A stretch of 64,000 nucleotides of DNA from a bacterium (lineage in GTDB: Bacteria; UBA8248; JACPRG01; G963555815). A program made the translations under genes and the position numbers. The notes under the pieces are model-generated. The model worked only from the letters and a program-made list of their open reading frames with translations, had not been told where the DNA came from and did no database searches. Where the stretch lies: assembly GCA_965249615.1 (NCBI GenBank), contig CBDFMI010000006.1, positions 444,132 through 508,131 of the forward strand. Direction: 5' to 3'. Positions 16,552 through 47,692 of this stretch are shown in pieces (position 1 is the stretch's first letter; every line of letters starts with the position of its first letter).

Positions 16552-17768
16552 GTGGAGAGAAAGGATCTCGTCGGAAGGTGGCCATGGTGGCCCCCTGTCC
16601 CTTCCCAAGCGTTCAGGGCTCCCAGATCCTGATCCAGGATCTGGCCGGGGGCCTCGAGAGGAGGGGACACGAGGTCCACGTGGTCACTTACCCCTTCGGG
16701 GGCTCCCGTCCGACCGCTTCCTTGCGGATCCACCGGGCTGCCTGTCCCCTTCGTTATGCCGTGGACCACCCGGGCCCTCATCTCTATAAACCTTTTCTGG
16801 ACCTCTTCGTCTTGAGAGAGCTCCTGCGGGTCATCCGCGGGGAGGGGATTGAGCTCCTCCACGCCCACAGCTATGAGGGGTTGCTCATCTCCCTGCTGGC
16901 CGGAAGGTGGACGGGCATTCCCGTCCTCTATCACAGCCACACCCTCCTCGAGGAGGAGCTCCCCACCTATTTTCGGGCCTCGTGGAAGCGCGCCCTGGCG
17001 CATTGGGTGGGCCGACTGCTGGACCGACAGCTTCCGCGTCGGTCAGACCATTGCATTGCCCTTTGTCAGAGAACCCTTGGGGCCTTTCGGGCCTTGGGGG
17101 TGGCGGCGGATCGCTCTTCCTGCATTCGTCCTCTGATCTTTTCCCCCGCCGATAAAACTCCTTCCAGGGTGGATGTAGAGCGCCATCCCTTCATCCTCTA
17201 TACGGGAAACCTCCACCCGTATCAGGATCTCAATCTCCTGATGGAGGGGTTCGCCGAGGTGGCCTCGAGGCTCTCAGAGGTCCGCCTGGTTATCGCCACC
17301 CATTCTGACCCTTCCCATTACGCCGCCCTGGCAAGGGCCCTGGGGCTGTCGGAGCGGGTCTCCTTTCGCGTGAAACCTCCCTTGGATGAAGAGTGGGGTT
17401 TGATGCGGAGGGCCGACCTCCTCGTCTGTCCGCGCCTTCGGTGCTCCGGCTACCCCATCAAGCTTTTGAACTACCTGGCGGCTGGAAGGCCCATCCTCGT
17501 CAGTGAGGGCTCGGCCGAGGGGATTCGCCATGGCGAGAACGGCTACGTTGTCTCTCGGCCTGAACCGAAAACCCTGGCGGAGGGGGCTATTCAAATCCTT
17601 CAGTCCCCCGCCTTGGCAAAACGGTTGGGCGAAGGGGCGGCCCGGACCTACCGGGAGGAGGTGGCGGAAGAGCGCTCCTTGTCGGCCATCGAGGCCATCT
17701 ACACGCAGTGTCTGGGGGAGGAGGGGAACGCGGCCCTCCTCGCCCACCCGAGGGAAATGGCCTCATGA
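16548..17768 (+). CDS. Glycosyltransferase family 4 (GT-B fold)
   Basis: ATG overlaps the upstream stop (ATGA); VAMVAPCPFPSVQGSQILIQDLAGGLERRGHEVHVV N-terminal GT4 motif; C-terminal GTLHPYQDL...E...E-type block. Confidence 0.8.
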   Translation: MSGEKGSRRKVAMVAPCPFPSVQGSQILIQDLAGGLERRGHEVHVVTYPFGGSRPTASLRIHRAACPLRYAVDHPGPHLYKPFLDLFVLRELLRVIRGEGIELLHAHSYEGLLISLLAGRWTGIPVLYHSHTLLEEELPTYFRASWKRALAHWVGRLLDRQLPRRSDHCIALCQRTLGAFRALGVAADRSSCIRPLIFSPADKTPSRVDVERHPFILYTGNLHPYQDLNLLMEGFAEVASRLSEVRLVIATHSDPSHYAALARALGLSERVSFRVKPPLDEEWGLMRRADLLVCPRLRCSGYPIKLLNYLAAGRPILVSEGSAEGIRHGENGYVVSRPEPKTLAEGAIQILQSPALAKRLGEGAARTYREEVAEERSLSAIEAIYTQCLGEEGNAALLAHPREMAS

Positions 17769-20042: not shown

Positions 20043-20675
20043 CTAGTCGATATATCCCAAGCCCTTCAGTTTGGCCTGGATGGTCTGCTTCTCTTCCTCG
20101 GAATAGACGTAATCGGCGGGCTCGATGTAACCGAATTCTTCCAGCCGAGAGAGAATATGCGCGACAGATTCCTTAACCGACTCTTTGTCCGTCTCGACGG
20201 TTATCTCGGGGTTGAGGGGCTCTTCATAGGGGTCTGAGACCCCCGTAAAATTCTTAATCTCACCCTTAAAAGCTTTCGCGTACATCCCTTTCACGTCCCG
20301 TTCTGCGCAGACCTCAACAGGGCATTTGACGTAGAGCTCCACGAAGCGCCCCACCTCGGCCCTTACGGCGTCTCGGATGGCCCGGTAGGGGGCGATGACC
20401 GCCGCCATGTTGGGAACCCCGTTTCGGGTCAAGAGGTGACAGAGGTATCCCAGGCGAATGATGTGCTTATCGCGGTCCTCTTTGGAGAAGCCGAGGTCGG
20501 CGCTGAGATTGCGGCGCACTTCGTCGCCGTCGAAGACCTCGACGTTCGGAAAACCGCGCTCGTGAAGTTTCTCTCCGAGAAGAACGGCAATCGTGCTTTT
20601 CCCTGAGCAGGGAAGGCCTGTGAACCAGACCGTGAACCCTCTGGGTTTATCTTTGATCACTTTCTCTCTCCTCAA
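20043..20675 (-). CDS. cysC: Adenylylsulfate (APS) kinase with a ~25-aa C-terminal extension
   Basis: P-loop GLPCSGKSTIA, DGDxxR motif FDGDEVRRNL; the extension ends ...QAKLKGLGYID; overlaps sat by ATGA. Confidence 0.9.
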   Translation of the reverse strand: MRREKVIKDKPRGFTVWFTGLPCSGKSTIAVLLGEKLHERGFPNVEVFDGDEVRRNLSADLGFSKEDRDKHIIRLGYLCHLLTRNGVPNMAAVIAPYRAIRDAVRAEVGRFVELYVKCPVEVCAERDVKGMYAKAFKGEIKNFTGVSDPYEEPLNPEITVETDKESVKESVAHILSRLEEFGYIEPADYVYSEEEKQTIQAKLKGLGYID

Positions 20676-21850
20676 GAGCCGCCGTCAGAACCCTGTCCTG
20701 CCCGCTCGGCGTAAGCCTGGTGCAAGACCCGGGCGACTTCAGGCCGCATCACCTCCGGGGGTGGAAGCTCCCCGCGGTCTAAAATTTCCCTCACACGAGT
20801 TCCGCTCAGGAAGACGCGCTCTTTCTCCCCGTGGGGGCAGGTCTTGGCCGTTATCATGGCCTCACACCCACGGCAGTAGAAGGCGTGGTCGAAGAAGAGA
20901 GGGGTGATCCCGATCTCCGAGGCCTCGAACTCGTGGAAGATATGGTGGGCGTCATAGGAGCCGTAGTAAGACCCGACGCCGGCGTGGTCCCGGCCCACGA
21001 TGAAATGGGTACAGCCGTAGTTCTTTCGCACGATAGCGTGGAAGATGGCCTCCTTCGGCCCGGCGTAGCGCATGGCCGCCGGAAACACGGAGAGGACCGT
21101 CCGGTTCTTGGGAAAATAGCTCTCCAGGATCACCCTGTAGGAGGCCATCCGGAGGTCCGCCGCCAGGTCGCCCTCCTTGGTGGCCCCGACCAGGGGATGA
21201 AGTAGGAGGCCGTCCACACATTCTAGGGCGCACTTCTGAATGTACTCGTGGGCGCGATGAATGGGGTTTCGGGTCTGGAAGGCCACGACCGTCTTCCACC
21301 CCTTGAGCTGAAAGAGAAGGCGGGTCTCCTTGGGTTCCAGATGGAAGTTGGACCACTCGGTGGCGGCCCCTCTTCGAAGGAGTTTAATAGGCCCCCCGAT
21401 GAGGACAGGGCCTCGCTCGAAGACCTGGCGAACCCCGGGGTGGTCCGAATCTTTTGTCCCGAAGACCTGCTCCACCTCCCTCTCCTTGTCCGGCTTCCAC
21501 TGAGAGGTGACCCGAAGAAGCCCGGTCGTTTCCTTCCCGACCGTGAGGGTAATCTCGTCACCTATGGAAAGGGTCTGGGCCGTCTTCTCATCCACGCCGA
21601 GGACGATGGGAAGCGTCCAGGGAAGGCCCAAGGCGAGGCGCTGGTCTTCCACCACAGCCTGGTAGTCCTCCTCCTCCATGAATCCCCTTAGGGGGCTGTA
21701 GGCCCCCGTCGCGATGAGTTCGAGATCGGAATGCTCCTGGGCCGACAGGGCGATTTTCGGCAGCCCTTGGGCTTTTTTGTCCAAGGCGGGCCGATCCTCC
21801 TCCCGGACCATCCGGTCGACGAGGACCCCGCCGTGCGGTTTGATAGGCAC
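20672..21850 (-). CDS. sat: Sulfate adenylyltransferase (ATP sulfurylase)
   Basis: 392 aa; QTRNPIHRAHE and GRDHAGVG motifs; start preceded by GAGGAGG RBS. Confidence 0.9.
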   Translation of the reverse strand: MPIKPHGGVLVDRMVREEDRPALDKKAQGLPKIALSAQEHSDLELIATGAYSPLRGFMEEEDYQAVVEDQRLALGLPWTLPIVLGVDEKTAQTLSIGDEITLTVGKETTGLLRVTSQWKPDKEREVEQVFGTKDSDHPGVRQVFERGPVLIGGPIKLLRRGAATEWSNFHLEPKETRLLFQLKGWKTVVAFQTRNPIHRAHEYIQKCALECVDGLLLHPLVGATKEGDLAADLRMASYRVILESYFPKNRTVLSVFPAAMRYAGPKEAIFHAIVRKNYGCTHFIVGRDHAGVGSYYGSYDAHHIFHEFEASEIGITPLFFDHAFYCRGCEAMITAKTCPHGEKERVFLSGTRVREILDRGELPPPEVMRPEVARVLHQAYAERAGQGSDGGS

Positions 21851-22045: not shown

Positions 22046-23464
22046 TTATCTCCCGGTGGCGGGCTCTAAATTCACCTCGATATAGCGCGCAATCTGGGGG
22101 TGGACTCGGGAGATCTCGTGGTAGATCTGCTGAGCCGCCCTCCGGTAGGTGAAGTGCCCCTTGGGGTCGGAGCGGAGCTTCACCACGTGCATCACCTCCC
22201 GGAGGTTCATCTGCCAGAGGAAGCGGCGGTGATGAGCGTTTAGGACAAAGTAGGGGGCCTCGTTCGGAAAATCCGCCAAAAACTTCTCAAAACACTTCTC
22301 GGCCTTGTCCACCCCTGCCAAATATTCTTGTTTCAACCCGGCGTCCTCGACGAGCTCGGGGATCGAGAACCCGTGGCGGATGGTCGGGGCCTGAGTGCTC
22401 TGGCTGCACATCCGGTGGCGCTTGAGGTCGAGGAAGGCCCCCTGGTCCACGAGACACTCGAAGGTGTAGGTCAGGTACTCCATCTCCCGGATGGGGATGT
22501 CAAAACGCTCTATTCGGCTCAGGGCCTCTTCAATGACTTTTTCCCGAGCTTCTTGGGGCATCTGTGCCACCCTCTCCCGGATGGCCTCGTAGGGGAGATG
22601 ACTGTATTTGAACAAGATGGCCGCCGCCAGGGCGACGTCGGGGTTTTCGGGGACCTGAACCAGCCGGGCATAATTTTCCTGAGGGCCGGACGCCTTTGAG
22701 ACCGGGGAGCCGTTGGTCATGGTAGAGGCGACGAGCTTCCTGAGGGCCGCCTCCGTGTCTCTCAGATAGGCGTTGTCGTCTGCATACTTGACGAGGGTTG
22801 GGGCGGCCGCCTGGCTGACCTCCTTCAGGGTGGTCCCGATCTGTTGGATTTCGGACAGGTCGTGGGAGAGCATCTTGGTGATGGCGTGCTCCAGGTGTCG
22901 GGCGTTGACGGTCATCCCCACATTGGCCAGGGCGGCGGTGGGGAGGAGAAAGCGCGAGCGGTCGAGGGCGTGGGCCCTCACGCGGACGTTGTATCCCCGA
23001 TCCGTCTCGTTCTCCCTCCTTTGGAGGACCCCCTTCTCTTTGATGAAGGCGTCCAGCTTCGTCTGGACGGCGTGGTAGTTCTCGAACATCCACTGCATGG
23101 CCTCGCGGTATTTTTGGCCGAGGGGTGAGGCGTCCACCTCGTCTGGGACATAATAGTCGTCCGGCTTGAAAACCTGATAGCGGGAGGATTTTTCGGTGTA
23201 GGAGGCGAGACGGTTCGCCTCGATGACTTCCGTTGCGTAGCGCGAAACATTCTCGATGGCGATGGAGAGGACGGCGTGCTCGGCCACCGAGGCGTGCCCA
23301 TAGCCGACGACCCATTTCTCATGGAACTCGGCCGAGGCGCTTTCGGTCAGCTCCTTGGCGATCTCGTCAAAGGCCTTTGGGGAGCGACTCGTCTTCGCGA
23401 AGGCGACGGCGACCACCTCGGGCGGGAGGTCCCGGAGGAGATAGATGCGGCGTTTTTTGTCCAT
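22046..23464 (-). CDS. thyX: FAD-dependent thymidylate synthase ThyX, tandem-fused two-repeat form
   Basis: Two ThyX-like halves: the first ...HASVAEHAVLSIAIENVSRYATEVIEANRLASYTEKSSRY (RHR degenerated to ANR), the second with an intact RHR signature LKRHRMCSQSTQ; both halves retain the VNAR/LNAH segment. Confidence 0.7.
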   Translation of the reverse strand: MDKKRRIYLLRDLPPEVVAVAFAKTSRSPKAFDEIAKELTESASAEFHEKWVVGYGHASVAEHAVLSIAIENVSRYATEVIEANRLASYTEKSSRYQVFKPDDYYVPDEVDASPLGQKYREAMQWMFENYHAVQTKLDAFIKEKGVLQRRENETDRGYNVRVRAHALDRSRFLLPTAALANVGMTVNARHLEHAITKMLSHDLSEIQQIGTTLKEVSQAAAPTLVKYADDNAYLRDTEAALRKLVASTMTNGSPVSKASGPQENYARLVQVPENPDVALAAAILFKYSHLPYEAIRERVAQMPQEAREKVIEEALSRIERFDIPIREMEYLTYTFECLVDQGAFLDLKRHRMCSQSTQAPTIRHGFSIPELVEDAGLKQEYLAGVDKAEKCFEKFLADFPNEAPYFVLNAHHRRFLWQMNLREVMHVVKLRSDPKGHFTYRRAAQQIYHEISRVHPQIARYIEVNLEPATGR

Positions 23465-23595
23465 GAGTGCCTTAGCGCAAGAGAATCCAGGGTCTGAAGA
23501 TGGACGAGAATGGCAGGGCCAGCGCTTCTTTTATACCAAAACCCCCACGTCTTTCACAATGACCTCAAAAGGCGGGAATTTTGTTCACAGGACCA

Positions 23596-25074
23596 CTATG
23601 GGACCAGGGCGATGGCCGACGCCCCTTGGAAGAAAGGGGCCGCTGAGGCCTTAACCGCGGAGAGCAGGGGGTCGGGATAGAGCCCGATCAGGAGGACTCC
23701 GACCACCATCAAGCCGAGGGCGAGACGGAGTGGGACGGAGGTGGAGATTTCGACCTTTCCGGCCGGTTCCACCATGTACATATTCACGACGACCTTGAAG
23801 TAGTAGTAGACGGAGAGGACGCTGTTCAGGACCCCGATGAGGGCCAGCCAGATATAGCCTGACTCGATGGCCGCCGAGAAGAGATAGAACTTCCCGACAA
23901 AACCCGCCGTCGGCGGGACCCCCGCCAGAGAGAGAAAGAAGACGACAAAGCCGATGCCGGCCAGGGGGTGGGCCCTCGCGAGTCCCCGAAAATCCTCCAC
24001 CCGGTCTCCTCGGAAGTTTTGGCGGCACAGGAGGATCACCATGGCGAAGGCGCCCATGTTCATGAAGATGTAGACGGCCAGGTAGAGGAGGACGCTTGCC
24101 ATCCCGATCTCGCTGCCGACGACGAGGCCGATCATGACGTAGCCGGCATGGGCCACCGAAGAGTAGGCCAGGAGCCGTTTCAGGTTGGACTGAACCATGG
24201 CGGCGATGTTGCCCCAGGTCATGCTGAAGACGGCCAGGAGCCAGAGGAGAATGGCCCACTGGTCGGCGATCCCCTCGAAGGCGACGGCGAAGATCCGGAG
24301 CAACCCCGCGAAGGCCGCCGCCTTGGTCCCCACGCTCATGAAGGCCGTGATGGAGGTGGGGGCTCCCTGGTAGGCGTCCGGGGCCCACATGTGGAAGGGG
24401 ACGAGGGCGATTTTGAAGGCGAACCCAGCCACGATCATGATGACAGAGAGGGTGAGGAGAATATTGGGGCCTGTCATCTCCCCGAAGGCGGCATGCATGG
24501 CGGCGAGGTTCGTCGTCCCCGTAATGCCGTAAGCGAGTGCGATTCCGTAGAGGATGATCCCCGAACTGAAAGCCCCCAGGAGAAAGTATTTGATCCCTCC
24601 CTCTTGGGACAAGAGATCGCGCTTCATGAAGCCGACCAGCATGTAGATGGGGATGGAGAGAAGCTCCATGCCGATGTAGATGGTCAGGAGGTCGCTCCCC
24701 CCGGCCATCACCATCATCCCGATAACGCTGAAGAGGATCAGGGCGTAGTACTCCCCCAGGTGAATCTCCTCTATCGAGAGGTATCGCAGGGAGATGAGGA
24801 CCGTGAGGACGGTGATCGCCAGAAAGATGAACTTGAAGAAGATGGCGAAGGAGTCCACCCGGTACATGTCGCTGAAGAGGCTGGCCTCCATCCCGATCAG
24901 GGGGAGGGTGAGGAGGCCCGTCACGACGACCCCGAAAAGCGTCAGGAGGCCCAAGAGCGCCTTTCGCCTCTGGGGGACAAAGAGGTCCACCAAAATCACG
25001 AGGCAAACGAGGACCGTCATGGCGATCTCCGGCATGATCGCAAAAAGGTTGACGGCGGGGAGCTTAAGCGGCAT
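23596..25074 (-). CDS. nuoN: NADH-quinone oxidoreductase subunit N
   Basis: 492 aa, 14-TM antiporter-like subunit at the end of the nuo operon. Confidence 0.88.
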   Translation of the reverse strand: MPLKLPAVNLFAIMPEIAMTVLVCLVILVDLFVPQRRKALLGLLTLFGVVVTGLLTLPLIGMEASLFSDMYRVDSFAIFFKFIFLAITVLTVLISLRYLSIEEIHLGEYYALILFSVIGMMVMAGGSDLLTIYIGMELLSIPIYMLVGFMKRDLLSQEGGIKYFLLGAFSSGIILYGIALAYGITGTTNLAAMHAAFGEMTGPNILLTLSVIMIVAGFAFKIALVPFHMWAPDAYQGAPTSITAFMSVGTKAAAFAGLLRIFAVAFEGIADQWAILLWLLAVFSMTWGNIAAMVQSNLKRLLAYSSVAHAGYVMIGLVVGSEIGMASVLLYLAVYIFMNMGAFAMVILLCRQNFRGDRVEDFRGLARAHPLAGIGFVVFFLSLAGVPPTAGFVGKFYLFSAAIESGYIWLALIGVLNSVLSVYYYFKVVVNMYMVEPAGKVEISTSVPLRLALGLMVVGVLLIGLYPDPLLSAVKASAAPFFQGASAIALVP

Positions 25075-25077
25075 CTC

Positions 25078-26673
25078 CTACCTGCTCCATTCTGTGGTCA
25101 GGTACTGGTGCTGTCTCAAGGCCTCAGACGCCTGGGCGGACAGGCTTTCGGGCGTCCCCCGGGCCAGCTCCACGTGCTGGATGAGGTTCTTGACGCTCGG
25201 TTCCATGATTTCGAGGAAAGGCTTGGGGTACATCCCGATCCAGAACATGAGAAGGAGGATGGGGAGCATGTAGGCGACTTCGCGGCGGTTCAAGTCCGGG
25301 AGGTTTTGGTTCTCCTCATGGGTCACGGCCCCGAACATCATCCGCTGGAAGAGCCAGAGCATATAGCCCGCCCCGAGGACGATCCCCGTGACAGCGAAGG
25401 CGGCGTACACCGTGCTCGTCTGAAAGACCCCAAGGAGGATGAGGAATTCTCCCACGAAGCCGTTGAGGCCGGGAAGCCCAATGGACGAGAACATGGCGAT
25501 GGCGAAGACCACCGTGAAGACCGGCATCACGCGCGCGAGGCCGCCGTAGTCGGCGATCATTCGGCTGTGTCTTCGCTCATAGAGGATCCCCACGATCAAG
25601 AAGAGGGCCCCGGTGGAGAGACCGTGGTTCAGGTTCTGAAGGAGGGCCCCAAGAAGACCCTGGGGGTTCAGGGCGAAGATCCCCAGCATGACGAACCCGA
25701 GATGGCTCACGGAGCTATAGGCCACCAATTTTTTAATGTCTTTCTGGGCCATGGCCACAAGGGCCCCGTAGATGATCCCGATGATGGCCAGAAGGGCGAT
25801 GAAGGGGACGAGGTTGAAACTGGCCCTGGGCAGCAGGGGGAGGCTGAAGCGGACGAAGCCGTAGGTCCCCATCTTGAGGAGCACCCCGGCCAGGATGACA
25901 CTCCCCGCCGTGGGGGCCTCCACGTGGGCGTCGGGAAGCCAGGTGTGGAAGGGGAACAAGGGGACCTTGATGGCGAAGCCCACAAAGAGGGCGAGGAAGA
26001 TCCAGAACTGAAAGTTCTCGGGCAGCTTCGGCGCCATCCGGTAGAGCTCAAGCAAATTAAAGGTGAACTCGCCGGAGCCGTAGATGGGGTCGGCGTTCAG
26101 GAAGTAAAGGGCCAGAAAACCCAGGAGGAGGAGGACGCTTCCGAAGAGTGTGTAGAGGAAAAACTTGATGGCGGCGTAGAGCTTCCGAGCCCCCCCCCAG
26201 ATGCCGATGAGGAAATACATGGGGACCAGCATGACCTCCCAGAAGACGTAGAACAGGAAAACGTCAAGGGCCATGAAGACCCCCAGCATCCCTGTCTCCA
26301 GGATGAGGAGGCTCACGTAGTACTCTTTTTGCCGCTCTCCGATGTTGCTGAAGGAGCAGAGAACCGCGACGGAGCTGAGGAGCGTGGTCAGGATGATGAG
26401 GGGGAGGCTGATCCCATCGATGCCAAAGAAGTATTGGACCCCGATGGATGGGATCCACTCCGCGCGTTCGACGAACTGCATTTGGACATTGCTCGGCTCA
26501 AAGTAGGGGATCATGAAGAGTGAGGAAAAGAGGGAGATCAGCGAGACGCCGAAGGCGAACCATTTGATGACGAGTGGTCGCTGCCTGGAGAAGAGGAGCA
26601 TGATCAAGACGGCCCCTACGATGGGGACGTAGGCCGTCATCGAAAGGACGGGGAAGCCGAGGGCGTTTGTCAT
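25078..26673 (-). CDS. nuoM: NADH-quinone oxidoreductase subunit M
   Basis: 531 aa antiporter-like subunit; conserved WLPDAHVEAPTAGSVILAGVLLK block. Confidence 0.9.
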   Translation of the reverse strand: MTNALGFPVLSMTAYVPIVGAVLIMLLFSRQRPLVIKWFAFGVSLISLFSSLFMIPYFEPSNVQMQFVERAEWIPSIGVQYFFGIDGISLPLIILTTLLSSVAVLCSFSNIGERQKEYYVSLLILETGMLGVFMALDVFLFYVFWEVMLVPMYFLIGIWGGARKLYAAIKFFLYTLFGSVLLLLGFLALYFLNADPIYGSGEFTFNLLELYRMAPKLPENFQFWIFLALFVGFAIKVPLFPFHTWLPDAHVEAPTAGSVILAGVLLKMGTYGFVRFSLPLLPRASFNLVPFIALLAIIGIIYGALVAMAQKDIKKLVAYSSVSHLGFVMLGIFALNPQGLLGALLQNLNHGLSTGALFLIVGILYERRHSRMIADYGGLARVMPVFTVVFAIAMFSSIGLPGLNGFVGEFLILLGVFQTSTVYAAFAVTGIVLGAGYMLWLFQRMMFGAVTHEENQNLPDLNRREVAYMLPILLLMFWIGMYPKPFLEIMEPSVKNLIQHVELARGTPESLSAQASEALRQHQYLTTEWSR

Positions 26674-26714
26674 AGAGGCGAAACTCCCAGTCAGGACTTA
26701 GAAGTTATCTTTCC

Positions 26715-28748
26715 TCATCCGAGAAGGAGGAAGAGGCTCACGGTGATGAAAATGCCAAGGAGCATGACCAGGGCATAGTTCTGGACGACGCCCGTCTGAA
26801 GGCGGCGAAGCCCCCGGGCCCAGTTGATGAGAATGACCCCGATCCCATTCACGGCGCCGTCCACCGTTTGAAGATCGAAAATGCCAGACAGCTTGCTGAG
26901 GGCCACCGTTCCCCATGAGACCCCGTTGACAGCCCCGTCCACACCCTTGGCGTCAGTGCCCGAACAAAGATGAGCCAGGCGTATCGAGGGCCGTATGAAG
27001 ACGGCGTGGTAGATCTCGTCCACCCAGTATTTATTGAGGAGGAGCCGGTGGACTCCACGGAATCGCTCGGCCACCTTGGCGGGGAGGTCTGGCCGCTTTC
27101 GATACATGTGGCGGGCCAGCATCCACCCCGACACCCCCACCACCACCGAAAAGACGGCGAGCCACAGCTCCAGAAGGCCGAATCTCCCTGATTTGTTTTC
27201 GGCTGAAGCCGCCACCAGCTGGATGCCGGCATGGCCCCCGTCTGGGAAGACTGGCGCCAAATGCTCGTGAAAGAAGTTCATCTGCGGGATGCCGACCCAG
27301 CCCCCCAGCAGGGCGAGGACGGCGAGGATCACCAAGGGAACCGTCATCACGGCGGGGGATTCGTGGACATGGGAGACGACGTGAGGGTCGCCCCGGGATT
27401 CTCCGTAGAAGGCGAGATAGATGAGGCGGAACATGTAGAAGGCCGTCATGAAGGCGGTGATGATCCCCAGGGCGTAGAGGAAATAGTGGCCGCCCTTAAA
27501 AGTCTCGGCCAGGATCTCGTCTTTGCTGAAGAAGCCCGCGAAGGGCGGAATCCCGGCGATGGCGAGGGCCCCCATGTAAAAGGTGATGGCCGTGACGGGG
27601 AGGCGGCGACGAAGCCCCCCCATGTAGCGAAGGTCCTGCCTCCGCCCCTCCTCCGGGTCGGAGTGCAGGGCGTGGATGACGCTCCCCGCGCCGAGGAACA
27701 TGAGGCCTTTGAAAAAGGCGTGGGTCATGAGATGAAAGATCCCGGCCCCGAAGGCCCCCACCCCAAGGGCCATAAACATGTAGCCGAGCTGGCTCACCGT
27801 GGAGTAGGCCAGGACCTTTTTGATGTCATTCTGGACGAGCGCAATGGAGGCGGCGAAGATGGCCGTGAGGGCCCCGACCAGAGCCACCACGCTCATAGAC
27901 ACGGGGGAGAGGAGATACAAGGCGTTCGAGCGGGCCACCATGTAAACCCCGGCGGTCACCATGGTGGCGGCGTGGATGAGGGCGCTGACCGAAGTGGGGC
28001 CTTCCATGGCGTCCGGAAGCCAGGTGTAGAGGGGAAGCTGGGCCGATTTCCCCACGGCCCCCACAAAGAGGAGGAGTGTAATGGCCGTCGCCGCGCCGGC
28101 GATGGCGGAGCCCGCCACCGCTGCCCCGGCCTGATCGAAGACGCCTGCGTAGTTCAGCGTCCCGAATGTCTGGAAGATGAGAAAGAGGCCGAGGAGGAAA
28201 CTCGCGTCCCCGATGCGGTTCATGATGAAGGCCTTTTTTCCCGCGTCGGCGGCTGACTTCTTGTGGTACCAAAAGCCGATGAGGAGATAAGAACAGAGCC
28301 CCACCCCCTCCCAGCCGACGAACATGAGGAGGTAGTTGTTGGCCAGGATGAGAAGGAGCATCGAGAACATGAAGAGGTTCAGGTAGGCGAAGTAGCGGGA
28401 GTAGCCCGGGTCCCCACGCATATACCCGGCCGAGTAGACGTGGATGACGAACCCCACCCCCGTTACCACGAAGAGCATCACGGCGCTGAGGGGGTCCAGA
28501 AGGAACGCCACCTCGACCAGAAGGCTCGGCACCGGGATCCACTCAAAGAGGCGCACCTCACCGCTCAGGCCCCGGAAGACCGCCTGATAGAGGAGGAGGA
28601 GGGACAGCCCCAGAGAAAGGCCGGTGGAGATAATGGCGGGCCAGTGGGCTTTCCTTCCGATGTAGCGCCCGAGGAATCCGTTCACCAAGACCCCCAGGGC
28701 CGGAAAGACGAGGACGAGAGGCAGAAGATTCAGCACTGATATCACCAC
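26715..28748 (-). CDS. nuoL: NADH-quinone oxidoreductase subunit L
   Basis: 677 aa; antiporter-like core plus C-terminal long-helix extension; [25 protein letters not shown]. Confidence 0.9.
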
Positions 28749-29044
28749 TTCAACAGGTTGATCTCGTCGACGTTTAGGGCGGCTCTTTGCCGGTTGATGG
28801 AGATGATGAGGGCGAGTCCGACGGCGGCCTCGGCCGCCGCCACCGTGATGACAAAGATGGCGAAGACCTGCCCCGTTAGGTTCCCATGGGCCCTGGAGAA
28901 GGCTATCAGGGTCAGGTTGACGGCGTTCAGCATGAGTTCGATGGACATCAGGATGATCATGATGTTTCGCCTGGTCAGGACCCCGACGGCCCCAATCAGG
29001 AAGATGATGCCCCCCAGGGCGAGGTAGTAAGGAATGGGAACCAT
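28742..29044 (-). CDS. nuoK: NADH-quinone oxidoreductase subunit K
   Basis: 100 aa, 3 TM; conserved E in TM2 and TM3 ([11 protein letters not shown]). Confidence 0.88.
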
Positions 29045-29566
29045 TTACTTAATCTCTCGCTTGGCCAGCACGATGGCCCCGATCATGGCCGCCAGGAGGA
29101 GGAGGGAGGCCACCTCAAAGGGGAAGAGGAACTGGGTGTAGAGAACGCCCCCGAAGGCCTCGGTGTTGCCTATCTCCGCGGCGGCCTTCGCCCCCTCTGC
29201 GACAACCCCCGCCGGGGGCAGCAATTCGAAGAATCCCCCCAACAGGATGACCAGGAACTCGGCGGCCAGGAGCCCACCGATGATGAAAGCGAAGGCCCGC
29301 TGGCGGTTCCACTGACGGACCCCCATCTGTTCGCGCACATTAACGAGCATAATGACGAAGACGTAGAGCATCATGATGGCCCCGGCGTAGATGAGGATCT
29401 GGATGGCAGCGAGAAACTCCGCGCCCAGCATGACGTAAAGGGCAGCCACGAAGAAGAAGCTGAGGAGGAGAGCGAGGGCGCTGTGGACCACGTTTCTCAG
29501 GCTGATGACCATCACGGAGGCGGCGATCATCCCGACCGCGAAGATGAGAAAGAATGGCCATTCCAT
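29045..29566 (-). CDS. nuoJ: NADH-quinone oxidoreductase subunit J
   Basis: 173 aa, 5 TM, position between nuoH and nuoK. Confidence 0.85.
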   Translation of the reverse strand: MEWPFFLIFAVGMIAASVMVISLRNVVHSALALLLSFFFVAALYVMLGAEFLAAIQILIYAGAIMMLYVFVIMLVNVREQMGVRQWNRQRAFAFIIGGLLAAEFLVILLGGFFELLPPAGVVAEGAKAAAEIGNTEAFGGVLYTQFLFPFEVASLLLLAAMIGAIVLAKREIK

Positions 29567-29579
29567 CTTGGAATCCCCT

Positions 29580-30662
29580 TTAAACGAGCTGCAGGACGAT
29601 ACCGGTGATAAAAATGTTCAAGAGAGCCAGCGGGAACATCATCTTCCACCCCAGCGCCATGAGCCGGTCATAGCGAAAGCGCGGCAGGGTCCCCCTGATC
29701 CAGATGAACATGAACATCCCGAACAGCACCTTGAGGAAGAACCAGAGAGGTCCTGAGATGAGGACGGCCTTCGTCACCCCCCCGATGTTCTGGACCAGGG
29801 AGGCCAACCCCACAGAGGCGGCGCCGACGGCCGATGCCACCAGGAAGGTGACCAGGTCCACGCCGCCCGAGATGATGGTTTCCAGGAACTGGGGGATTTG
29901 CCAGCCCCCGAAGAAGAGGATCGCCCCGATGGAGCAGATCACCATCATGTTGGCGTACTCAGCCAGGAAGAAGAAGGCGAACTTCATGCCGCTGTACTCG
30001 GTGTGGAAGCCCCCCACCAGCTCTGTCTCGGCCTCGGGGAGGTCGAAGGGGAGGCGGTTGGTCTCGGCGAGCCCGGCGACGAAGTAGAGGACGAAAGCCA
30101 GGGGCTGATAGAAGATGAACCAGACGTTCTTCTGGGCCTCGACGATCTCAAGGAGGTTCAGGGACCCGGCCACCATGAGAGGGCCGATTAGGGCGAACCC
30201 CAAAAAAATCTCGTAGCTGATGAGTTGGGCCGCGCTCCGGAACCCCCCCAGCAGGGAATACTTGCTCCCCGAGGCCCAGCCCGCCATGACGATGCCGAAG
30301 ACACCGAGGGAGGAGATCCCGAGGATGTAGAGGATCCCGATGTTGATGTTGGCGATGAAGAAGTTCCCCGAGATGGGGATGACCGAGTAGACGATGAAGG
30401 CGGGGATGAGGGCGAAGAGCGGGGCCATCAGGAAGACCGGTCGATCCGCCTGGTGCGGGATGATGTCTTCCTTGAGGAAGAGTTTTAGACCGTCGGCGAT
30501 GGGCTGAAGGAGGCCGTGGTAGCCGACCCGCATGGGCCCCATGCGCACCTGAATGTGCCCGATGACCTTCCGCTCGAAGTAGACCATGTAGGCCACCAGG
30601 AACGAGACCGCCCCCCAGATAATCAGGATCTTGATGAGGGCGAAACCAACCTCAAGCCACAT
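29580..30662 (-). CDS. nuoH: NADH-quinone oxidoreductase subunit H
   Basis: 360 aa; [21 protein letters not shown] and EYANMM motifs. Confidence 0.9.
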
Positions 30663-30701
30663 CTGTGTGCACCTTGCCTCCGCTAGGGGGGGTCGCTGAC
30701 C

Positions 30702-31826
30702 TCAGCGATCCACTTCCCCGAGCACAATATCGATGCTTCCGATGGCGGCGACGGCGTCCGAGATGAGGCCGCCCTGCATCATGGTGGAGATCGACTGCAG
30801 ATTCACGAAAGAGGGGGGACGGATCCTCAGCCGGTAAGCCCGGTCGGTCCCGTCACTGACTAGATAGTAGCCCAGCTCCCCCTTGGGACTCTCGATCCGG
30901 TGGTAGACTTCCCCCTTTTTTGGCTTCAACACCCGGGGAACCTTGGCCATGGTCTTTCCGGAGGGGAGGTCGGCGGCGGCCTGCTCGATGATGAAGGCGC
31001 TCTGGCGCATCTCCTCCACACGGACGAGGTAACGGTCATAGACATCGCCATTCTTTCCCACCGGGACGGTGAAGTCAAAATCCTCGTAGGCGGCGTAGGG
31101 CTCTGCACGCCGCACGTCATGGGCCACGCCGGAGGCCCTCAGGATGGGCCCACTGGCCCCGAGGTCAATGGCGTCCTCGGCGGAGAGAACGGCCACTCCG
31201 CGGGTCCTGGACTGCCAGATACGGTTCTCGGTGAGGAGGTCTTCATAATCGTAGATGGCCTTGGGGAACTCGCGGGCGAACTCCAAACACTTGTCGTAAA
31301 AAAGTTTGGGGGGGTCGTGGTAGACGCCTCCGACGCGGAAGGCATGAACCGTGAGCCTCGCCCCAAAGGCGGTCTCGAAAAGATCCAGGACCTTCTCTCG
31401 GTCCCGGAAACAATAGAGGAAGGCCGTCATGGCCCCGATGTCCAGGGCGTGGGTGGCGAGCCAGAGGAGATGACTCGCGATCCGGGTGAGTTCGGCTGTG
31501 ATGACGCGGATGTACTGGGCCCGGGCCGGAACCTCCATCTGAGCAAGCTTTTCCACCGTCTCCACATATCCCAGGTTGTTGGCTGGGGAGGCCACATAAT
31601 CCGTTCGGTCTGTGTAGGGAACGAACTGGGCGTAGGTGATGTTCTCGCCGATCTTCTCGACGCCCCGGTGGAGATAACCGATGTCCACGTCAACCCCTTG
31701 CACAATCTCCCCCTTCAGCCGAAGGATGACGCGAAGGACCCCGTGGGTGCTGGGGTGCTGGGGCCCCATGTTGAGGATGAGCTCTTCCGTCTGGGGGACG
31801 ATGGTCTCTGGGGTGACCTGGGTCAT
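30702..31826 (-). CDS. nuoD: NADH-quinone oxidoreductase subunit D (49-kDa)
   Basis: 374 aa; LNMGPQHPSTHGVLR N-terminal signature. Confidence 0.9.
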   Translation of the reverse strand: MTQVTPETIVPQTEELILNMGPQHPSTHGVLRVILRLKGEIVQGVDVDIGYLHRGVEKIGENITYAQFVPYTDRTDYVASPANNLGYVETVEKLAQMEVPARAQYIRVITAELTRIASHLLWLATHALDIGAMTAFLYCFRDREKVLDLFETAFGARLTVHAFRVGGVYHDPPKLFYDKCLEFAREFPKAIYDYEDLLTENRIWQSRTRGVAVLSAEDAIDLGASGPILRASGVAHDVRRAEPYAAYEDFDFTVPVGKNGDVYDRYLVRVEEMRQSAFIIEQAAADLPSGKTMAKVPRVLKPKKGEVYHRIESPKGELGYYLVSDGTDRAYRLRIRPPSFVNLQSISTMMQGGLISDAVAAIGSIDIVLGEVDR

Positions 31827-31830
31827 AGTC

Positions 31831-32622
31831 TCACTCTCGATGGGCCATGGGCCGGGCGGCGGGCGGGATATGGCTTTCTACCCATTGGAGCCCGAACCCA
31901 TCCCCGCGAACGGGATACTCCTTTCGGAGGGGATGGCCCTCCCAGTCGTCCGGGAGGAGGATCCGTCTGAGGTCGGGGTGGCCCTCGAAATCAATCCCCA
32001 CCATGTCGTAGGCCTCTCGTTCGAGCCAGTTGGCCGTCCGCCAGATGTCAGACACGGTCGGGGCCGTCTCCGCCTCCCCAAGGCGGACCTTCAGCCGAAG
32101 GCGCCCCCTTCGCTCCAAGCCATAGAGGTGATAGACCACCTCGAAGGGGCGATCCCGGTCCGGGTAGTGGACACCGCAGAGGTCCGACAGGAAATTGAAA
32201 TGGTGTTGGTCTTTGAGGTGAAGACAAAGTGGGTGGATCTGGTCCCGCCGGACGACGACGGTGAGTTCGTCCTCTTTTCCCATGAAGGCGGAGACCTCTT
32301 CCACCCCTTCCCCTGAAAAGGCGCGAATGGCCTTCACCAGGGGGAGTTCCTCGAGATTTTCGCCGGGCTTTTTGTCCGCTTTGACCGGTGGCGGGGCCTT
32401 TTTTTGTTCCGAGGCCGGGGGTTTCTCAGCCGGAGGCGCTTTGGGCTCTTCGGATTCAGCCGTTGGAGGGGAAGCTTCGGGAGCGGCTGACTCTTCCCCC
32501 TCGGGCTTTTTGTCCGCCTTGACCGGCGGTGAGGCCTCTTTTTGTTCCGAGGCCGGGGGTTTCTCAGCCGAGGACGCTTCGGGCTCCTCGGGCTCAGCGG
32601 GGGCGGAGTTCTCTTCGGTCAC
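31831..32622 (-). CDS. nuoC: NADH-quinone oxidoreductase subunit C (30-kDa) with ~85-aa Ala/Pro/Glu/Lys-rich N-terminal extension
   Basis: C-terminal 175 aa are canonical NuoC ([19 protein letters not shown]); the N-terminal extension contains a duplicated [19 protein letters not shown] unit; the true start could be downstream. Confidence 0.8.
32364..32600. repeat. ~138-bp tandem direct duplication inside the 5' part of nuoC
   Basis: cgggctttttgtccgcTTTGACCGGtGGcGgGGCCTtTTTTTGTTCCGAGGCCGGGGGTTTCTCAGCCG... recurs at 32364 and 32502 with few substitutions. Confidence 0.7.
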
Positions 32623-32742
32623 CTCGTCTCTCCTCTAGACGACGACCCATCTAACCTGTGCAAAAATTCACAAAAGGCGGCCAAAAAAAAGCTTCCCGTT
32701 GTTCCTTTGGCCTCCCTGACTCACGGTCATCGTTTCCCTGGG

Positions 32743-33219
32743 CTACTTTCGAAGAAACTTTTCCTGCTGGATCTTCTCCTGCAGCTTCAGAATTCCCCAC
32801 ATCAAGGCCTCCGGGCGGGGAGGGCAGCCCGTGAGATAGATGTCGACGGGGACCACTTGGTCCACGCCCTGGAGGGTGGAGTAGGTGTTGAAAGGTCCTC
32901 CTGCCGTCGAGCAGCTCCCCATGGAGACCACCCATCGGGGTTCTGCCATCTGGTCATAGATCTTGCGCAAAACCGGGGCCATCTTGTAGGTGACGGTCCC
33001 GGCCACGATCATCACGTCCGACTGACGCGGGCTCGCCCTGAAGATGACCCCAAAGCGGTCGAGGTCATATCGGGAGGCGCCTGTGGCCATCATCTCAATC
33101 GCGCAGCAGGCCAGGCCGAACTGCATGGGCCAAAGGGCTGATTTTCGGGCCCAATTGACCAGGTAATCGAGGGTTGTCGTGAAGATGTTCTCCTCGAAGC
33201 GGTGTTCCACTACACCCAT
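32743..33219 (-). CDS. nuoB: NADH-quinone oxidoreductase subunit B (20-kDa, N2 cluster)
   Basis: 158 aa; CCAIEMM...GSCSTAGG...CPPRPE cysteine ligands. Confidence 0.92.
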
Positions 33220-33602
33220 TTAAGGGCCCCTTTGCGCCAGGCGTAGAAGTAACCGACGAGGAGGATGAGAATGAAGAGCATCATCTCGACGAGGCCAAAT
33301 AGGCCGAGCCGGCCGTAGACCACCGCCCAGGGAAACAGGAAGACCGCCTCCACGTCAAAAAGGAGGAAGAGGATGGCGACGATGTAAAACCGGATGGAAA
33401 ATTGTTCCCCCGCCCGCGTGAGGGGCGGGATCCCGCACTCATAGGGGGAGAGTTTCTCGGTGTCTGGCCGGTTGGGTCGGATGAGATAGGCCAGGAGGAG
33501 GGTCCCGATTCCGAAGGCCGCCACCACCAGGATGAAAATGAAGATTGGGACATAGGGATGGATGACAGTGTAGTCACTGAAAAACCGGTTAACCAGTTCC
33601 AC
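33210..33602 (-). CDS. nuoA: NADH-quinone oxidoreductase subunit A
   Basis: 130 aa, 3 TM; [13 protein letters not shown] motif; overlaps nuoB. Confidence 0.88.
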
Positions 33603-34867: not shown

Positions 34868-34953
34868 AAATTCACTGGGCCTGGGGGATTACGAAGAGCC
34901 AGGGGGTTTCCAGGACATTTTCTTTAAATCAGAAAGCGGGAGGGGAGCTCATC

Positions 34954-35610
34954 ATGAATCAGGCCCTCGATGTCACCTGCTATGTCTGCTACGTCTGACC
35001 CTTTGCCTATCGGGCCACGGAGTGGCTCGAACGTCTAAGGGAGAGTCGGCCCCTTCGGGTCGTCTATAAGCCCTTCATCCTGGAGCAGGTGAACTTCCAG
35101 GAGAAGCGGGGTCCGGAATGGAAGATCTGGGAGGACGACTTTTTCCCCAGCCGGGACCTTCCGCCCCTCGAGGCGGCCAGGTGCGCTGCCCTCCAGGGGG
35201 AGGAGGCTTTTGGGCGATTCCATCTCCTCCTCTTTCGAGCGAGACATCAGAAGAATTTTGACATCACGAACCAGCTCATCCTCCTCGACGTGGCCAAGGA
35301 GGCGGGGCTCGATGGAGAGCGCTTCGCCAGTGATCTCAAGAGCCGAAGCCAGTTGGAGGGGGTCGCCCGAGGGCACATGGAGGCCGTCGAGAAGCATGGG
35401 GTCTTCGGCGTCCCGACACTCATCTTCAACGGCGGGAGGCCCCTCTTCGTGAAGCTGGGGGAGGGGAAGTGGGAGGGGAAGGAAGACCAAAAACTCCTGG
35501 AACAACTTCTCAAGCTCTCGGTGGATCAGCCCTATGTCCTAGAGGTGAAACAGCCGAAATCGGCCGTCCTCGCCGAGGAGGCTGAGAAGAAATATCAGGC
35601 CTATCCCTAA
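34954..35610 (+). CDS. DsbA-like (FrnE-type) thiol-disulfide oxidoreductase, candidate selenoprotein with in-frame TGA (Sec) at 34996-34998
   Basis: AGGGGAG RBS 8 nt upstream of ATG 34954; reading through the TGA gives MNQALDVTCYVCYV-U-PFAYRATEWLERL..., continuous with the thioredoxin-fold ORF called from GTG 35089; the motif C-Y-V-U sits where DsbA has C-P-W-C; without read-through the downstream ORF lacks any redox motif. Confidence 0.55.
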
Positions 35611-45209: not shown

Positions 45210-46664
45210 ATGAAATTTGAGCAAGACTTCCAAAGCCTGATCGAGCTCGTCAGCAATGTCACAGACGCCTTCACGGCGGGAGTTTTTCTCCCCGGCCCCG
45301 CGGAGGGAATGCTGACTCTCAGGATCTATCACACCCTCAGCGACCATCTGAGGACCGATGCCCATATTGAGCGCGGGCAGGGGCTTGTCGGCTGGGTGGC
45401 CGAACACGGCAAACCCTTGAATTCCGTAGAGTTCAAGCACGACATCTCTGCCCTCGGTCTCTACGGCGGGCCAGAGGACATCAAATCTTTCATGGCCGTC
45501 CCGATTCGCACCCCAGAGGGGACCGGCGTCCTCTGCATAGACAGCAAGCGTCAATATGTCTTCACCCCCAAGGTTCAAAAGATCCTCCTCGACTTTTCGC
45601 GGCTCATCTCCTACCTGCTGGAGAACTCTGACGTCTACCGGCAGATTGGCCGAGGGGCCATCTCTCTTTCCGATATGCGGGACTACGCAGGGGCCCTCAC
45701 CCATTCCTGCGATGAGGAGGCCTTCCTCGACTCCGCTTGCAATCTGCCAAAGAAACTCCTGGACTATGATGCCTGCCTCATCGCCCTGCGGGCCCCCGGG
45801 GAGGACCGCTTTGAAGTGGCTCGCTGTATCTGTCGCTTGGAGGACCCCCTGGAGGGACGCCCGGTCGACCTCGACCGAAGCCTCGTGGGCTGGGTCCTCT
45901 CCCGCGGGGAGGTCCTTCATCTGCAGACCCTGAACCGAGAGAGGGGCAAGAGTCACCTCATCCATCCCGAAGAGCCGGCGTGGCCCGTGGCCTCTTTCCT
46001 CGGCCTCCCTCTTCAGGTGGCAGAGGATTTCCTCGGCGTCCTCGCCTTCACCCGCTCGAGGCCGGGGGGATTTTTGGATCGGGAGCTTGCGGCGGCCGAA
46101 CTGGTCCAGCGCCTGCTGTCCCTGGGCCTCGCCAACACCAGAATGCATACCAAGTGGCGGAACCTGGCCGAGGTGGACCGCCTCACGGGCCTTCCGAACT
46201 ACCGCCGTTTTCAGGCTCATCTCAAGGCCGCGCTGGAGCGGACCACCGAGCAAAAAGGGTTTCTCGCCCTGCTGGCCGTCGAGGCCGTGGAATTTCCCGA
46301 CCCGGGTCGGGAGGCTTGGCTGGGAGATGGGCTCCTCAAGGAGCTGGCGCTTCTTCACCGGCAGTTTGCGGGGGACCCGGACTTAGTGACATGCTTTCAA
46401 GGACAGAGGTTCCTCCTCGCCTTAGAGGGGGCGAGTCCCGAAGCGGCGCGGGCCCTCGCCGAGAGGCTCCGGGAGGTTGTCGAGGAGACCATCTTTCCTT
46501 CCCAGGGCCCTCAAGTCCGCCTCAGGATCCACATCGGCCTCAGCAGCTTTCCAGAGGACGGTCGCACAGAGGGGCAGCTCGTCCTTCAAGGGCTTCGAGC
46601 GCTGGAGTGGGCCAAGGAAGAGGGGCGAAACACCATCTGTTCTTGCGCGGAGGTAATGGAGTGA
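45210..46664 (+). CDS. GAF-domain protein with C-terminal degenerate GGDEF domain
   Basis: Two GAF-like regions; C-terminal LTGLPNYRRF...DPDLVTCFQGQRFLLAL...ALEWAKEEGRN is GGDEF-like but the signature is QGQRF instead of GG(D/E)EF. Confidence 0.7.
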   Translation: MKFEQDFQSLIELVSNVTDAFTAGVFLPGPAEGMLTLRIYHTLSDHLRTDAHIERGQGLVGWVAEHGKPLNSVEFKHDISALGLYGGPEDIKSFMAVPIRTPEGTGVLCIDSKRQYVFTPKVQKILLDFSRLISYLLENSDVYRQIGRGAISLSDMRDYAGALTHSCDEEAFLDSACNLPKKLLDYDACLIALRAPGEDRFEVARCICRLEDPLEGRPVDLDRSLVGWVLSRGEVLHLQTLNRERGKSHLIHPEEPAWPVASFLGLPLQVAEDFLGVLAFTRSRPGGFLDRELAAAELVQRLLSLGLANTRMHTKWRNLAEVDRLTGLPNYRRFQAHLKAALERTTEQKGFLALLAVEAVEFPDPGREAWLGDGLLKELALLHRQFAGDPDLVTCFQGQRFLLALEGASPEAARALAERLREVVEETIFPSQGPQVRLRIHIGLSSFPEDGRTEGQLVLQGLRALEWAKEEGRNTICSCAEVME

Positions 46665-46666
46665 GG

Positions 46667-47692
46667 ATGCCACTGAGCTTTTTGCCCCGGCGGCTGGCCG
46701 GGGACATCGCCATCGACCTCGGTACCGCCAATACCCTCATCTACATCCCCGGGAGAGGGATCGTGTTGCAGCAACCCTCGGTCGTGGCCGTTGTCCAGGA
46801 CAATGGGGAGGTCCTCGCCGTGGGGGATGGGGCGAAGACCATGTGGGGCAAGACGCCGGACTCCATCACCATCATCCGGCCCATGAAAGATGGCGTCATC
46901 GCTGATTTTGAAGTCACCCGAACCATGATCCAGTACTTCATCCGCCAGGTCTATCAGGGCCGGCGCTACTTCAAGCCTCGAATGATGGTGTGCGTTCCCT
47001 CCGGGATCACCCAGGTGGAAAAACGCGCCGTGAAGGAGTCGGCCTTTCAGTCGGGGGCCCGAAGTGTCCATCTCATCGAGGAGCCCATGGCGGCCGCCAT
47101 CGGCAGCAAGCTGCCCGTCCACGAGGTGGGCGGGAACATGGTCGTCGACATCGGGGGTGGGACCACCGAGGTCGCCGTCATCTCCCGATATGCCACCGCC
47201 TACAGCGAGTCCATCCGAATCGCGGGGGACGAGATGGATGAGGCTATCCAGGCCCAGGTGAAGCGGGTTTACAGGCTTGCCATCGGCCCCTTTGAGGCCG
47301 AACGGGCCAAGATCGAGATCGGCTCCGCCGCCCCCCTGGACTCCCCGCTGACGACTGTCATCCGGGGCCGGGACATTGTGGAGGGGATCCCCAAGGCCAT
47401 CAATGTCGACGACACCATGATCCGTGAGGCCCTCAACGGCCCTGTGAAGGCCATTGTGGAGGCCATCCGGCGGGCCCTGGAGCGTTCCACGCCGGAGCAG
47501 GCCGCCGACATCACGCGAAAGGGCATCGTCCTGGCGGGTGGCGGATCGCTTCTGAAGGGCCTGGGAAAACGCCTGCACGAGGAGACGGGTCTTCGCATCT
47601 ATCGGGCCAAGGACCCCCTAACAGCCATCGTGCGAGGGACCGGGGAAGTCCTGGAAAACATGAAGATAATGCACAAGGTCTGCGTCACCTAG
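46667..47692 (+). CDS. mreB: Rod-shape-determining actin homolog MreB
   Basis: IDLGTANTLIY...MVVDIGGGTTEVAVIS...GIVLAGGGSLLKGL; GGAG RBS; the long ORF-track version 45980.. overlaps the GGDEF gene and is rejected. Confidence 0.92.
   Translation: MPLSFLPRRLAGDIAIDLGTANTLIYIPGRGIVLQQPSVVAVVQDNGEVLAVGDGAKTMWGKTPDSITIIRPMKDGVIADFEVTRTMIQYFIRQVYQGRRYFKPRMMVCVPSGITQVEKRAVKESAFQSGARSVHLIEEPMAAAIGSKLPVHEVGGNMVVDIGGGTTEVAVISRYATAYSESIRIAGDEMDEAIQAQVKRVYRLAIGPFEAERAKIEIGSAAPLDSPLTTVIRGRDIVEGIPKAINVDDTMIREALNGPVKAIVEAIRRALERSTPEQAADITRKGIVLAGGGSLLKGLGKRLHEETGLRIYRAKDPLTAIVRGTGEVLENMKIMHKVCVT

Follow-up and report, generated by a model that had tools for sequence, protein, structure and literature searches.

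The locus at 34954-35610 of the window, by which we mean the whole 64,000-nucleotide stretch of contig CBDFMI010000006.1 from a bacterium of the GTDB lineage UBA8248, raises the question of whether an in-frame TGA close to the start of a DsbA-like gene terminates translation or encodes selenocysteine (Sec). An ATG at 34954 opens a frame that reaches TGA at codon 15 (34996-34998) and then remains open up to the TAA at 35608-35610, and the product delineated by gene callers is a 173-aa open reading frame (ORF) that begins further downstream, at GTG 35089 (P0001). An earlier, sequence-only reading had pointed to the ribosome-binding site and the ATG, to the TGA after 14 codons and to the uninterrupted continuation of the frame into the GTG-initiated ORF, all of which can be read directly from the sequence, and had proposed a DsbA-like selenoprotein in which the TGA stands for Sec. 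The Sec/Cys pair among the homologs, the conservation of the TGA, the hairpin that follows it, the extent of the domain and the standard genetic code of the window all agree with this proposal. On the evidence of sequence comparison, the product of the locus is very probably a cytoplasmic, DsbA-like oxidoreductase of 218 residues with a thioredoxin fold (FrnE/Rv2466c-type), in which the UGA at codon 15 is recoded to Sec.

Reading frame, gene model and genomic context

The N-terminus obtained by joining the two parts of the frame, MNQALDVTCYVCYV-[TGA]-PFAYRATEWLERL, agrees with the N-termini of homologs that are read through at the same codon, for example MAETLDVTCYVCYV-U in L004. When searched against Pfam, the joined protein aligned with the DSBA domain (PF01323) over residues 7-186, spanning positions 2-190 of the 191 profile positions with a score of 55.5 bits (the gathering threshold of this family is 25.6 bits). 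It follows that the 45 codons preceding GTG 35089 belong to the domain and that the TGA is located inside it. The column of codon 46 in the homologs is occupied by Val or Ala, within a conserved LEQ[VA]N motif, and the sequence-only reading had allowed that homologs might begin at the position equivalent to 35089; they do not, their conservation extending upstream of it. The same reading had described the downstream ORF as devoid of a catalytic cysteine pair, and indeed the GTG-initiated product lacks Sec15 and its start lies inside the DSBA domain. The view that this ORF is an annotation artefact without a catalytic residue is thus supported. The features of the gene are collected in Table 1.

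Table 1. Features of the selenoprotein gene, in coordinates of the window
Feature	Coordinates	Strand	Evidence
Ribosome-binding site, purine-rich, GGGAGGGGAG	34938..34947	+	Read from the sequence; 6 nt before ATG 34954
Full selenoprotein coding sequence (predicted), 218 codons including Sec15, plus stop TAA 35608-35610	34954..35610	+	Translation, span of Pfam DSBA, N-termini of homologs
Cys9, -6 from Sec; C-x-x-C-x-x-U in the subclade of the window	34978..34980	+	Cys in 5/37 distinct clade-1 sequences
Cys12, -3 from Sec; clade-specific C-x-x-U, candidate resolving cysteine	34987..34989	+	Invariant in clade 1
TGA, predicted selenocysteine codon (Sec15), nucleophilic first-Cys position (U-P-F-A)	34996..34998	+	71/80 TGA, 9/80 TGC/TGT; Rv2466c anchor
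Putative bSECIS element	34999..35041	+	MFE fold of 34990-35070; conserved pairing in clade 1
GTG called as start of the truncated 173-aa product; internal Val46 codon of the full protein	35089..35091	+	P0001; alignment of homologs
Cys77 (AARCAA), helical insert; alternative candidate resolving cysteine	35182..35184	+	Invariant in alignment of 19 close homologs

Ahead of the TCYVCYV stretch, which runs up to Sec15, there are just seven residues (MNQALDV), too few for a hydrophobic leader; the protein therefore has no signal peptide and is predicted to be cytoplasmic. The gene is flanked by nuoA-nuoB (on the minus strand) and by genes for a SAM methyltransferase, an SDR, an aminotransferase and a pentapeptide-repeat protein. 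Neither a conserved partner nor sel genes were found beside the homologs, whose neighbourhoods are wholly different from one another, indicating that the gene stands alone.

Scanning the whole 64 kb for in-frame TGA junctions, we obtained 21 that are flanked by coding signal on either side. At TGA 34996 the coding score is positive both before and after the codon, and 34954-35610 is the only one of the 21 junctions at which a redox-type motif coincides with a strong hairpin of the bSECIS type; the scan detected no further credible selenoprotein gene in the 64-kb window. The TolQ/TolR and NuoD/NuoH junctions were rejected as selenoprotein candidates, being merely adjacent genes that lie in the same frame.

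Selenocysteine and cysteine forms of the family

A scan of 185,579 species-representative genomes, with an alignment of the close subfamily as the query, yielded 80 homologous loci. At the column of the window's TGA, 71 of the 80 carry TGA and the remaining 9 carry TGC or TGT, so that the alignment with Cys-containing homologs, which the sequence-only reading had put forward as a check, does place Cys at this column. The alternation of TGA with TGC/TGT at one column is a classic Sec/Cys pair.

The protein databases give the same picture in a distorted form. Our protein search retrieved 60 relatives, and the close ones (P0001-P0027) are all truncated just after the TGA column, save that the sole 'full-length' sequence among them, P0018, has Trp at this column, with TGA in the underlying DNA (L002:416-418). 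P0170, which represents 147 member sequences, likewise has Trp there. The Logan/ENA calls with Trp at the Sec-TGA were presumably made with genetic code 4; the P0018 call also runs past its true TGA stop and so acquires a spurious tail of 30 residues. A Trp aligned with a catalytic Cys is a useful flag for selenoproteins that are hidden by truncated calls. The distant full-length relatives share a conserved [FY]-x-D-[FY]-x-C-P-[FWY]-[AV]-Y motif, the Cys of which aligns with the TGA of the window, and the Cys forms present in the protein database include P0028-P0046 and P0138/141/167/198.

Two clades can be distinguished among the Sec forms. Clade 1 consists of 41 loci and the window, with the motif C-Y-[VI]-U-P-[YF]-A-Y-R-A-[MT]-E-W-L, and its hosts are metagenome-assembled genomes (MAGs) labelled Nitrospinota, Tectomicrobia, Deltaproteobacteria/Thermodesulfobacteriota or just 'bacterium'. 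Clade 2, tallied at 31 sequences, which is one above the number implied by the locus count, has the motif Y-D-[FY]-x-U-P-[YFW]-V-[YH]-N-A-A and comes from Dehalococcoidia, SAR202 and other Chloroflexota; its members are homologs of the window protein, with roughly 35-40% identity to it. Hosts of the Cys forms are Dormibacterota, Chloroflexia, Thermomicrobiales and some Chloroflexota. A neighbour-joining tree has the Cys groups interleaved with the Sec clades, which indicates that Sec and Cys were exchanged more than once.

A second protein search, seeded with a clade-2 sequence, returned 478 clusters, mostly truncated at 188-194 aa, along with close Cys forms that are about 52% identical to the clade-2 Sec forms and read FYDFR-C-PFVYNA. 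One clade-2 locus, from a Dehalococcoidia MAG (JAGWBF010000036.1, L059:3025-3085), has the usual TGA and, 18 codons further on, an in-frame TAA (…KKSYG-TAA); the additional stop may mean that the gene is a pseudogene or is frameshifted, or that this MAG was misassembled there.

A SECIS-type hairpin downstream of the TGA

In the minimum free energy (MFE) fold of 34990-35070, a lower helix directly after the UGA pairs CCCUU (34999-35003) with AAGGG (35037-35041), and an upper stem pairs UCGGGCCAC (35010-35018) with GUGGCUCGA (35022-35030) around the apical loop GGA (35019-35021). The sequence-only reading had expected a SECIS-like hairpin in this GC-rich region and had suggested folding it: a hairpin is present, and the pairing then envisaged, GGGCC with GGCCC over 35011-35052, has to be replaced by the one given here. 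The hairpin at 35010-35030 has 9 bp and a 3-nt loop that starts with GG, is located 20 nt from the UGA and has an energy of -13.5 kcal/mol. It thus conforms in every respect to the published bSECIS model, which specifies a loop of 3-9 nt, an upper stem of 4-16 bp, a G within the first two loop positions, a distance of 16-37 nt from the UGA and an MFE of -7.5 kcal/mol or lower (PMC13188914).

In a search for perfect stems, hairpins that fit this model were found in 87% of the clade-1 sequences and in none of the 9 Cys forms. The mean energy of the best hairpin is -8.4 kcal/mol in clade 1, -6.6 in clade 2 and -2.7 in the Cys forms, a difference that yields p = 1.5e-5 in a Mann-Whitney test in which phylogeny is ignored. 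The clade-2 hairpin is in a slightly shifted register, GCAGCC-GUGU-GGCUG, and has in common with clade 1 the 3' arm encoding Trp-Leu.

Codon usage and covariation within the stem were also examined. The Ala codon in the stem is GCC in all 36 sequences, as against 26 GCC, 6 GCA and 5 GCT for the Ala three codons earlier, which lies outside the stem. The pair that closes the loop is U.G in 15 sequences, C-G in 11 and U-A in 10, and is never C/A (Fisher p = 0.016). Counted over the whole stem, 80% of the cells are paired in clade 1, compared with 30-47% in slid controls, with only one pair changed on both sides; in clade 2 the corresponding values are 76% and 24-56%, with 3 pairs changed on both sides. 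When synonymous codons were resampled with the protein held fixed, the hairpin of the window was equalled or beaten in 19 of 100 samples, and the median z in clade 1 was -1.24. For any single sequence the RNA-level signal is accordingly modest, because the amino acids A-[MT]-E-W-L already favour a hairpin. An Rfam search at the gathering threshold reported nothing in the window, an outcome that is uninformative for bSECIS elements located in coding regions.

The same MFE fold contains a second stable hairpin directly after the SECIS-type element, at 35044-35065, of the type GAGUCGGCCCC-UUCG-GGGUCGUC with a UUCG loop. Its stem is kept, with one base change, in the 97%-identical L003 and was not seen in more distant members of clade 1.

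Position of the predicted selenocysteine in the active site

The Sec of the window aligns with the Cys of relatives containing D-x-x-C-P-W-A, such as P0049, and P0049 in turn aligns end to end with Rv2466c of Mycobacterium tuberculosis (PDB 4NXI; E = 8e-36), with FDPV-C-PWA-W matching FDPL-C-PWC-W. Sec therefore corresponds to the first Cys of the CPWC of Rv2466c, that is, to the first, nucleophilic position; the sequence-only reading had set it one residue off the second Cys, and in this point it has to be revised. The U-P dipeptide is invariant in both Sec clades, and at +3 from Sec there is Ala in the window (U-P-F-A) and Ala or Val across the family. The local motif, C-Y-V-U-P-F-A, hence combines U-P-x-A with an upstream Cys.

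The C-x-x-U motif recognised from the sequence stands, since the residue at -3 is Cys in 37 of the 37 distinct clade-1 sequences, whereas it is Asp in all 29 clade-2 sequences and in all 9 Cys forms. The subclade of the window (5 of the 37 distinct sequences) displays a C-x-x-C-x-x-U ladder, TCYVCYVU. Cys77 is absent from the distant homologs.

Genetic code and selenocysteine machinery

Of the 43 long ORFs in the window, 20 end in TGA and none contains it in frame, which shows that the genetic code is standard. A tRNA scan of the 64-kb window found no tRNA at all, hence no tRNA-Sec, and neither selA nor selB nor selD was found in the window when 30 further ORFs were annotated with Pfam, so that we infer Sec decoding in the source genome from its lineage and from the gene itself. 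With regard to the lineage, the ten most selenoprotein-rich bacteria in BSepDB include three MAGs of 'Nitrospinota' (GTDB UBA8248), with 48-54 selenoprotein genes, and two Dehalococcoidia, with 46-49 (PMC13326102). The TGA forms described here were found in these same listed lineages, 'Nitrospinota' (GTDB UBA8248) and Dehalococcoidia.

Alternative explanations

Were the TGA a genuine stop, the locus would consist of a 14-residue leader peptide and a truncated protein re-initiated downstream, at GTG 35089 or a similar position. This is how the public annotation has it (P0001, 173 aa), and many clade-1 homologs possess a Met seven codons after the TGA (MEWL...), which gene callers take as the start. 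In the window, however, that position is occupied by Thr (ACG) and no start codon precedes codon 46. The stretch of 30 codons that leads from the TGA to GTG 35089 shows protein-level conservation and forms part of the DSBA domain. The 14 upstream codons are conserved as well, with the invariant C-Y-[VI] directly before the TGA, and a product that started at 35089 would be deprived of strand beta-1, helix alpha-1 and the catalytic residue. Termination at this codon thus appears very unlikely.

It is likewise highly improbable that the UGA is read as a standard amino acid (Trp, Gly or Cys), be it through a reassigned code or through near-cognate or suppressor decoding. The Trp that appears in some gene calls (P0018, P0170) would fit such decoding, as would the lack of visible Sec machinery in the 64-kb window, but TGA serves as a terminator of nearly half of the long ORFs of the window and is in frame in none of them, and homologs without the TGA invariably have Cys, and in no case Trp or Gly, at the aligned position. 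Moreover, the SECIS-type hairpin goes with the TGA and is lost in the Cys forms, and the lineages concerned are documented as heavy users of Sec. A pseudogene, or a Cys codon misread in sequencing or assembly, would require just one base change to turn TGC or TGT into TGA, and one relative (L059) does have the additional in-frame TAA. Yet the same TGA recurs in 71 independent genome loci from several phyla, down to about 35% protein identity, with an intact frame before and after it and conserved flanking residues, which makes this explanation extremely unlikely. We consequently retain the recoding of UGA to Sec as the preferred reading.

Other features of the window

Several other regions of the window are of interest in their own right. 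On the plus strand, 7674-19168 contains five genes of the alkaline phosphatase superfamily (two Sulfatase and three Phosphodiest/type I phosphodiesterase) interleaved with genes for an LPG_synthase_TM membrane protein and a GT4 glycosyltransferase; this run looks like a cluster for the modification of lipid or cell-envelope head groups. On the minus strand, genes for sulfate activation (ATP sulfurylase and APS kinase, 20043-21850) adjoin a nuo operon (22046-33602, also on the minus strand) that encodes NuoA, NuoB, NuoC and downstream subunits. Judging by ORF sizes in a partial annotation, the operon has no obvious NuoE/F/G, which suggests a complex I of the 11-subunit type.

The MreB ORF (45980-47692, plus strand), listed at 570 aa, begins with roughly 240 spurious residues, MreB proper starting from about residue 242; this extension overlaps, in another frame, the gene for a GAF-GAF-GGDEF diguanylate cyclase (45210-46664, plus strand). 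Finally, the TGA-junction scan brought up a perfect 12-bp hairpin, UCCGGCCUCUUC-AGA-GAAGAGGCCGGA (-22.1 kcal/mol), at about 60800-60842 on the minus strand within an ORF of the AsmA family (58362-61181), inside a large coding region on the opposite strand.

Proposed mechanism

In bacterial recoding, the complex of SelB, GTP and Sec-tRNA(Sec) binds the apical loop of the SECIS element as the ribosome reaches the UGA, and Sec is delivered in competition with release factor 2. The hairpin at 35010-35030, located directly 3' of the UGA, would serve as such a bacterial SECIS element, given its agreement with the published criteria, and we infer the insertion of Sec at codon 15. By homology, Sec15 should be placed at the N-terminus of helix alpha-1, in the position of the nucleophilic Cys of CPxC enzymes, and could attack a substrate disulfide or an S-thiolated protein, in the manner of the N-terminal Cys of NCgl2478 and Rv2466c, to give a selenenylsulfide. 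Because the canonical resolving residue at +3 is replaced by Ala throughout the family (with Val as the variant mentioned above), the ancestral chemistry was probably of the monothiol type, with resolution by an external low-molecular-weight thiol as the presumed electron donor. In clade 1, either Cys12 or Cys77 might instead resolve the intermediate through an intramolecular Se-S bond. By analogy with the characterised relatives, we propose that the protein functions as a Sec-dependent thiol-disulfide or de-thiolating reductase.

A more tentative scenario, which we consider possible and rather doubtful, is that clade 1, within a monothiol family (nucleophile-P-x-Ala), regained a redox centre of two residues, now on the other side of the nucleophile: the otherwise conserved Asp at -3 would have been replaced by Cys, so that the putative resolving Cys is upstream, and Sec would have kept the position of the nucleophile.

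Implications for annotation and function

The main use of the present finding lies in correcting a truncated gene call. In public records, the members of this family appear as N-terminally truncated proteins of 167-204 aa, annotated 'DsbA family protein' or 'hypothetical protein' and lacking the catalytic residue, and the correction adds one selenoprotein per genome in many genomes of known heavy selenium users. The family also offers a clean natural series of nucleophile and -3 residue, namely Cys/Asp, Sec/Asp and Sec/Cys, from which the contributions of Sec and of the added candidate resolving Cys to an enzyme with a thioredoxin fold and monothiol chemistry could be learned. No new category is opened here, since bacterial SECIS recoding and selenoproteins of the DsbA-like type are firmly established: the gene of the window is very probably a genuine selenoprotein gene, a further member of a known family, with a clade-specific CxxUP variant of the motif.

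Comparison with known systems

That DsbA-like proteins are a recognised selenoprotein family, as the sequence-only reading had stated, is borne out by the literature (PMC1088965; PMC13188914). The first form, UxxC (COG2761/PF01323), was reported from the Sargasso Sea in 2005 (PMC1088965), and DsbA-like selenoproteins rank among the top 20 bacterial selenoprotein families, with representatives in 41 organisms (PMC5029168). The 2026 review by Zhang et al. distinguishes form 1, UxxC, from form 2, DxxUP (PF01323), attributes the latter to Peng et al. 2016 and gives MDP6049977.1 as its reference protein (PMC13188914).

Form 1 resembles the window protein in its DsbA-like thioredoxin fold, in Sec at the first position of CxxC and in a bSECIS directly downstream, but it keeps the resolving Cys at +3, where the window protein has Ala. 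With form 2 the window protein shares the Pfam domain, Sec followed by Pro and the lack of Cys at +3. Clade 2 (Dehalococcoidia/SAR202, YDFx-U-P[YFW]V) has exactly the DxxUP motif and was matched to form 2 by this motif; the name 'crotonase', which the review uses as a label for form 2, occurs in none of the clade-2 search matches. The window protein and the other clade-1 sequences (37 of 37 distinct ones) differ from form 2 in having Cys rather than Asp at -3, that is, CxxUP.

By homology, the reductases of the DsbA-Mrx1 cluster, Rv2466c (PDB 4NXI, 4ZIL, 5XUR) and NCgl2478, are the best mechanistic analogue and the nearest characterised relatives of the family, with which they share the fold and the D-x-x-C-P-[WF] context. 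NCgl2478 of Corynebacterium glutamicum uses its N-terminal Cys as the nucleophile and reduces S-mycothiolated substrates through a monothiol mechanism (PMC8280269). Unlike the window protein, which has Sec in the nucleophilic position and Ala at +3, Rv2466c and NCgl2478 contain CPxC with Cys and use mycothiol. The lineages that encode the window protein are not known to make mycothiol. Against the Pfam model of the Rv2466c-like family (PF22234), the window protein scored 14.7 bits, below the 27-bit threshold, and has Ala in place of the second Cys.

The closest solved structure by sequence is a 'DSBA domain-containing protein', available as wild type and as a Cys-to-Ser mutant (PDB 7DK9 / 7DKA; E = 1.3e-12 over residues 8-170), which has the same monothiol motif, YFDFL-C-PYAW, and differs in being a Cys form with Asp at -3. 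In the searchable literature we found no paper on the function of 7DK9, which is mentioned only in a benchmark of side-chain modelling. Classical periplasmic DsbA has a signal peptide and CPHC, in contrast to the UPFA and the leaderless N-terminus of the window protein, and matches to DsbA structures in the PDB are marginal (E ~0.1-0.3) and confined to the C-terminal part. NCBIfam has no model for the family of the window protein. In CxxU proteins of the SelW/Rdx type, Sec occupies the second position of the canonical CxxC. If a selenenylsulfide forms between Cys12 and Sec15, the window protein would have, within its thioredoxin fold, a CxxU centre that is structurally 'reversed', and would represent a third form of the DsbA-like selenoproteins.
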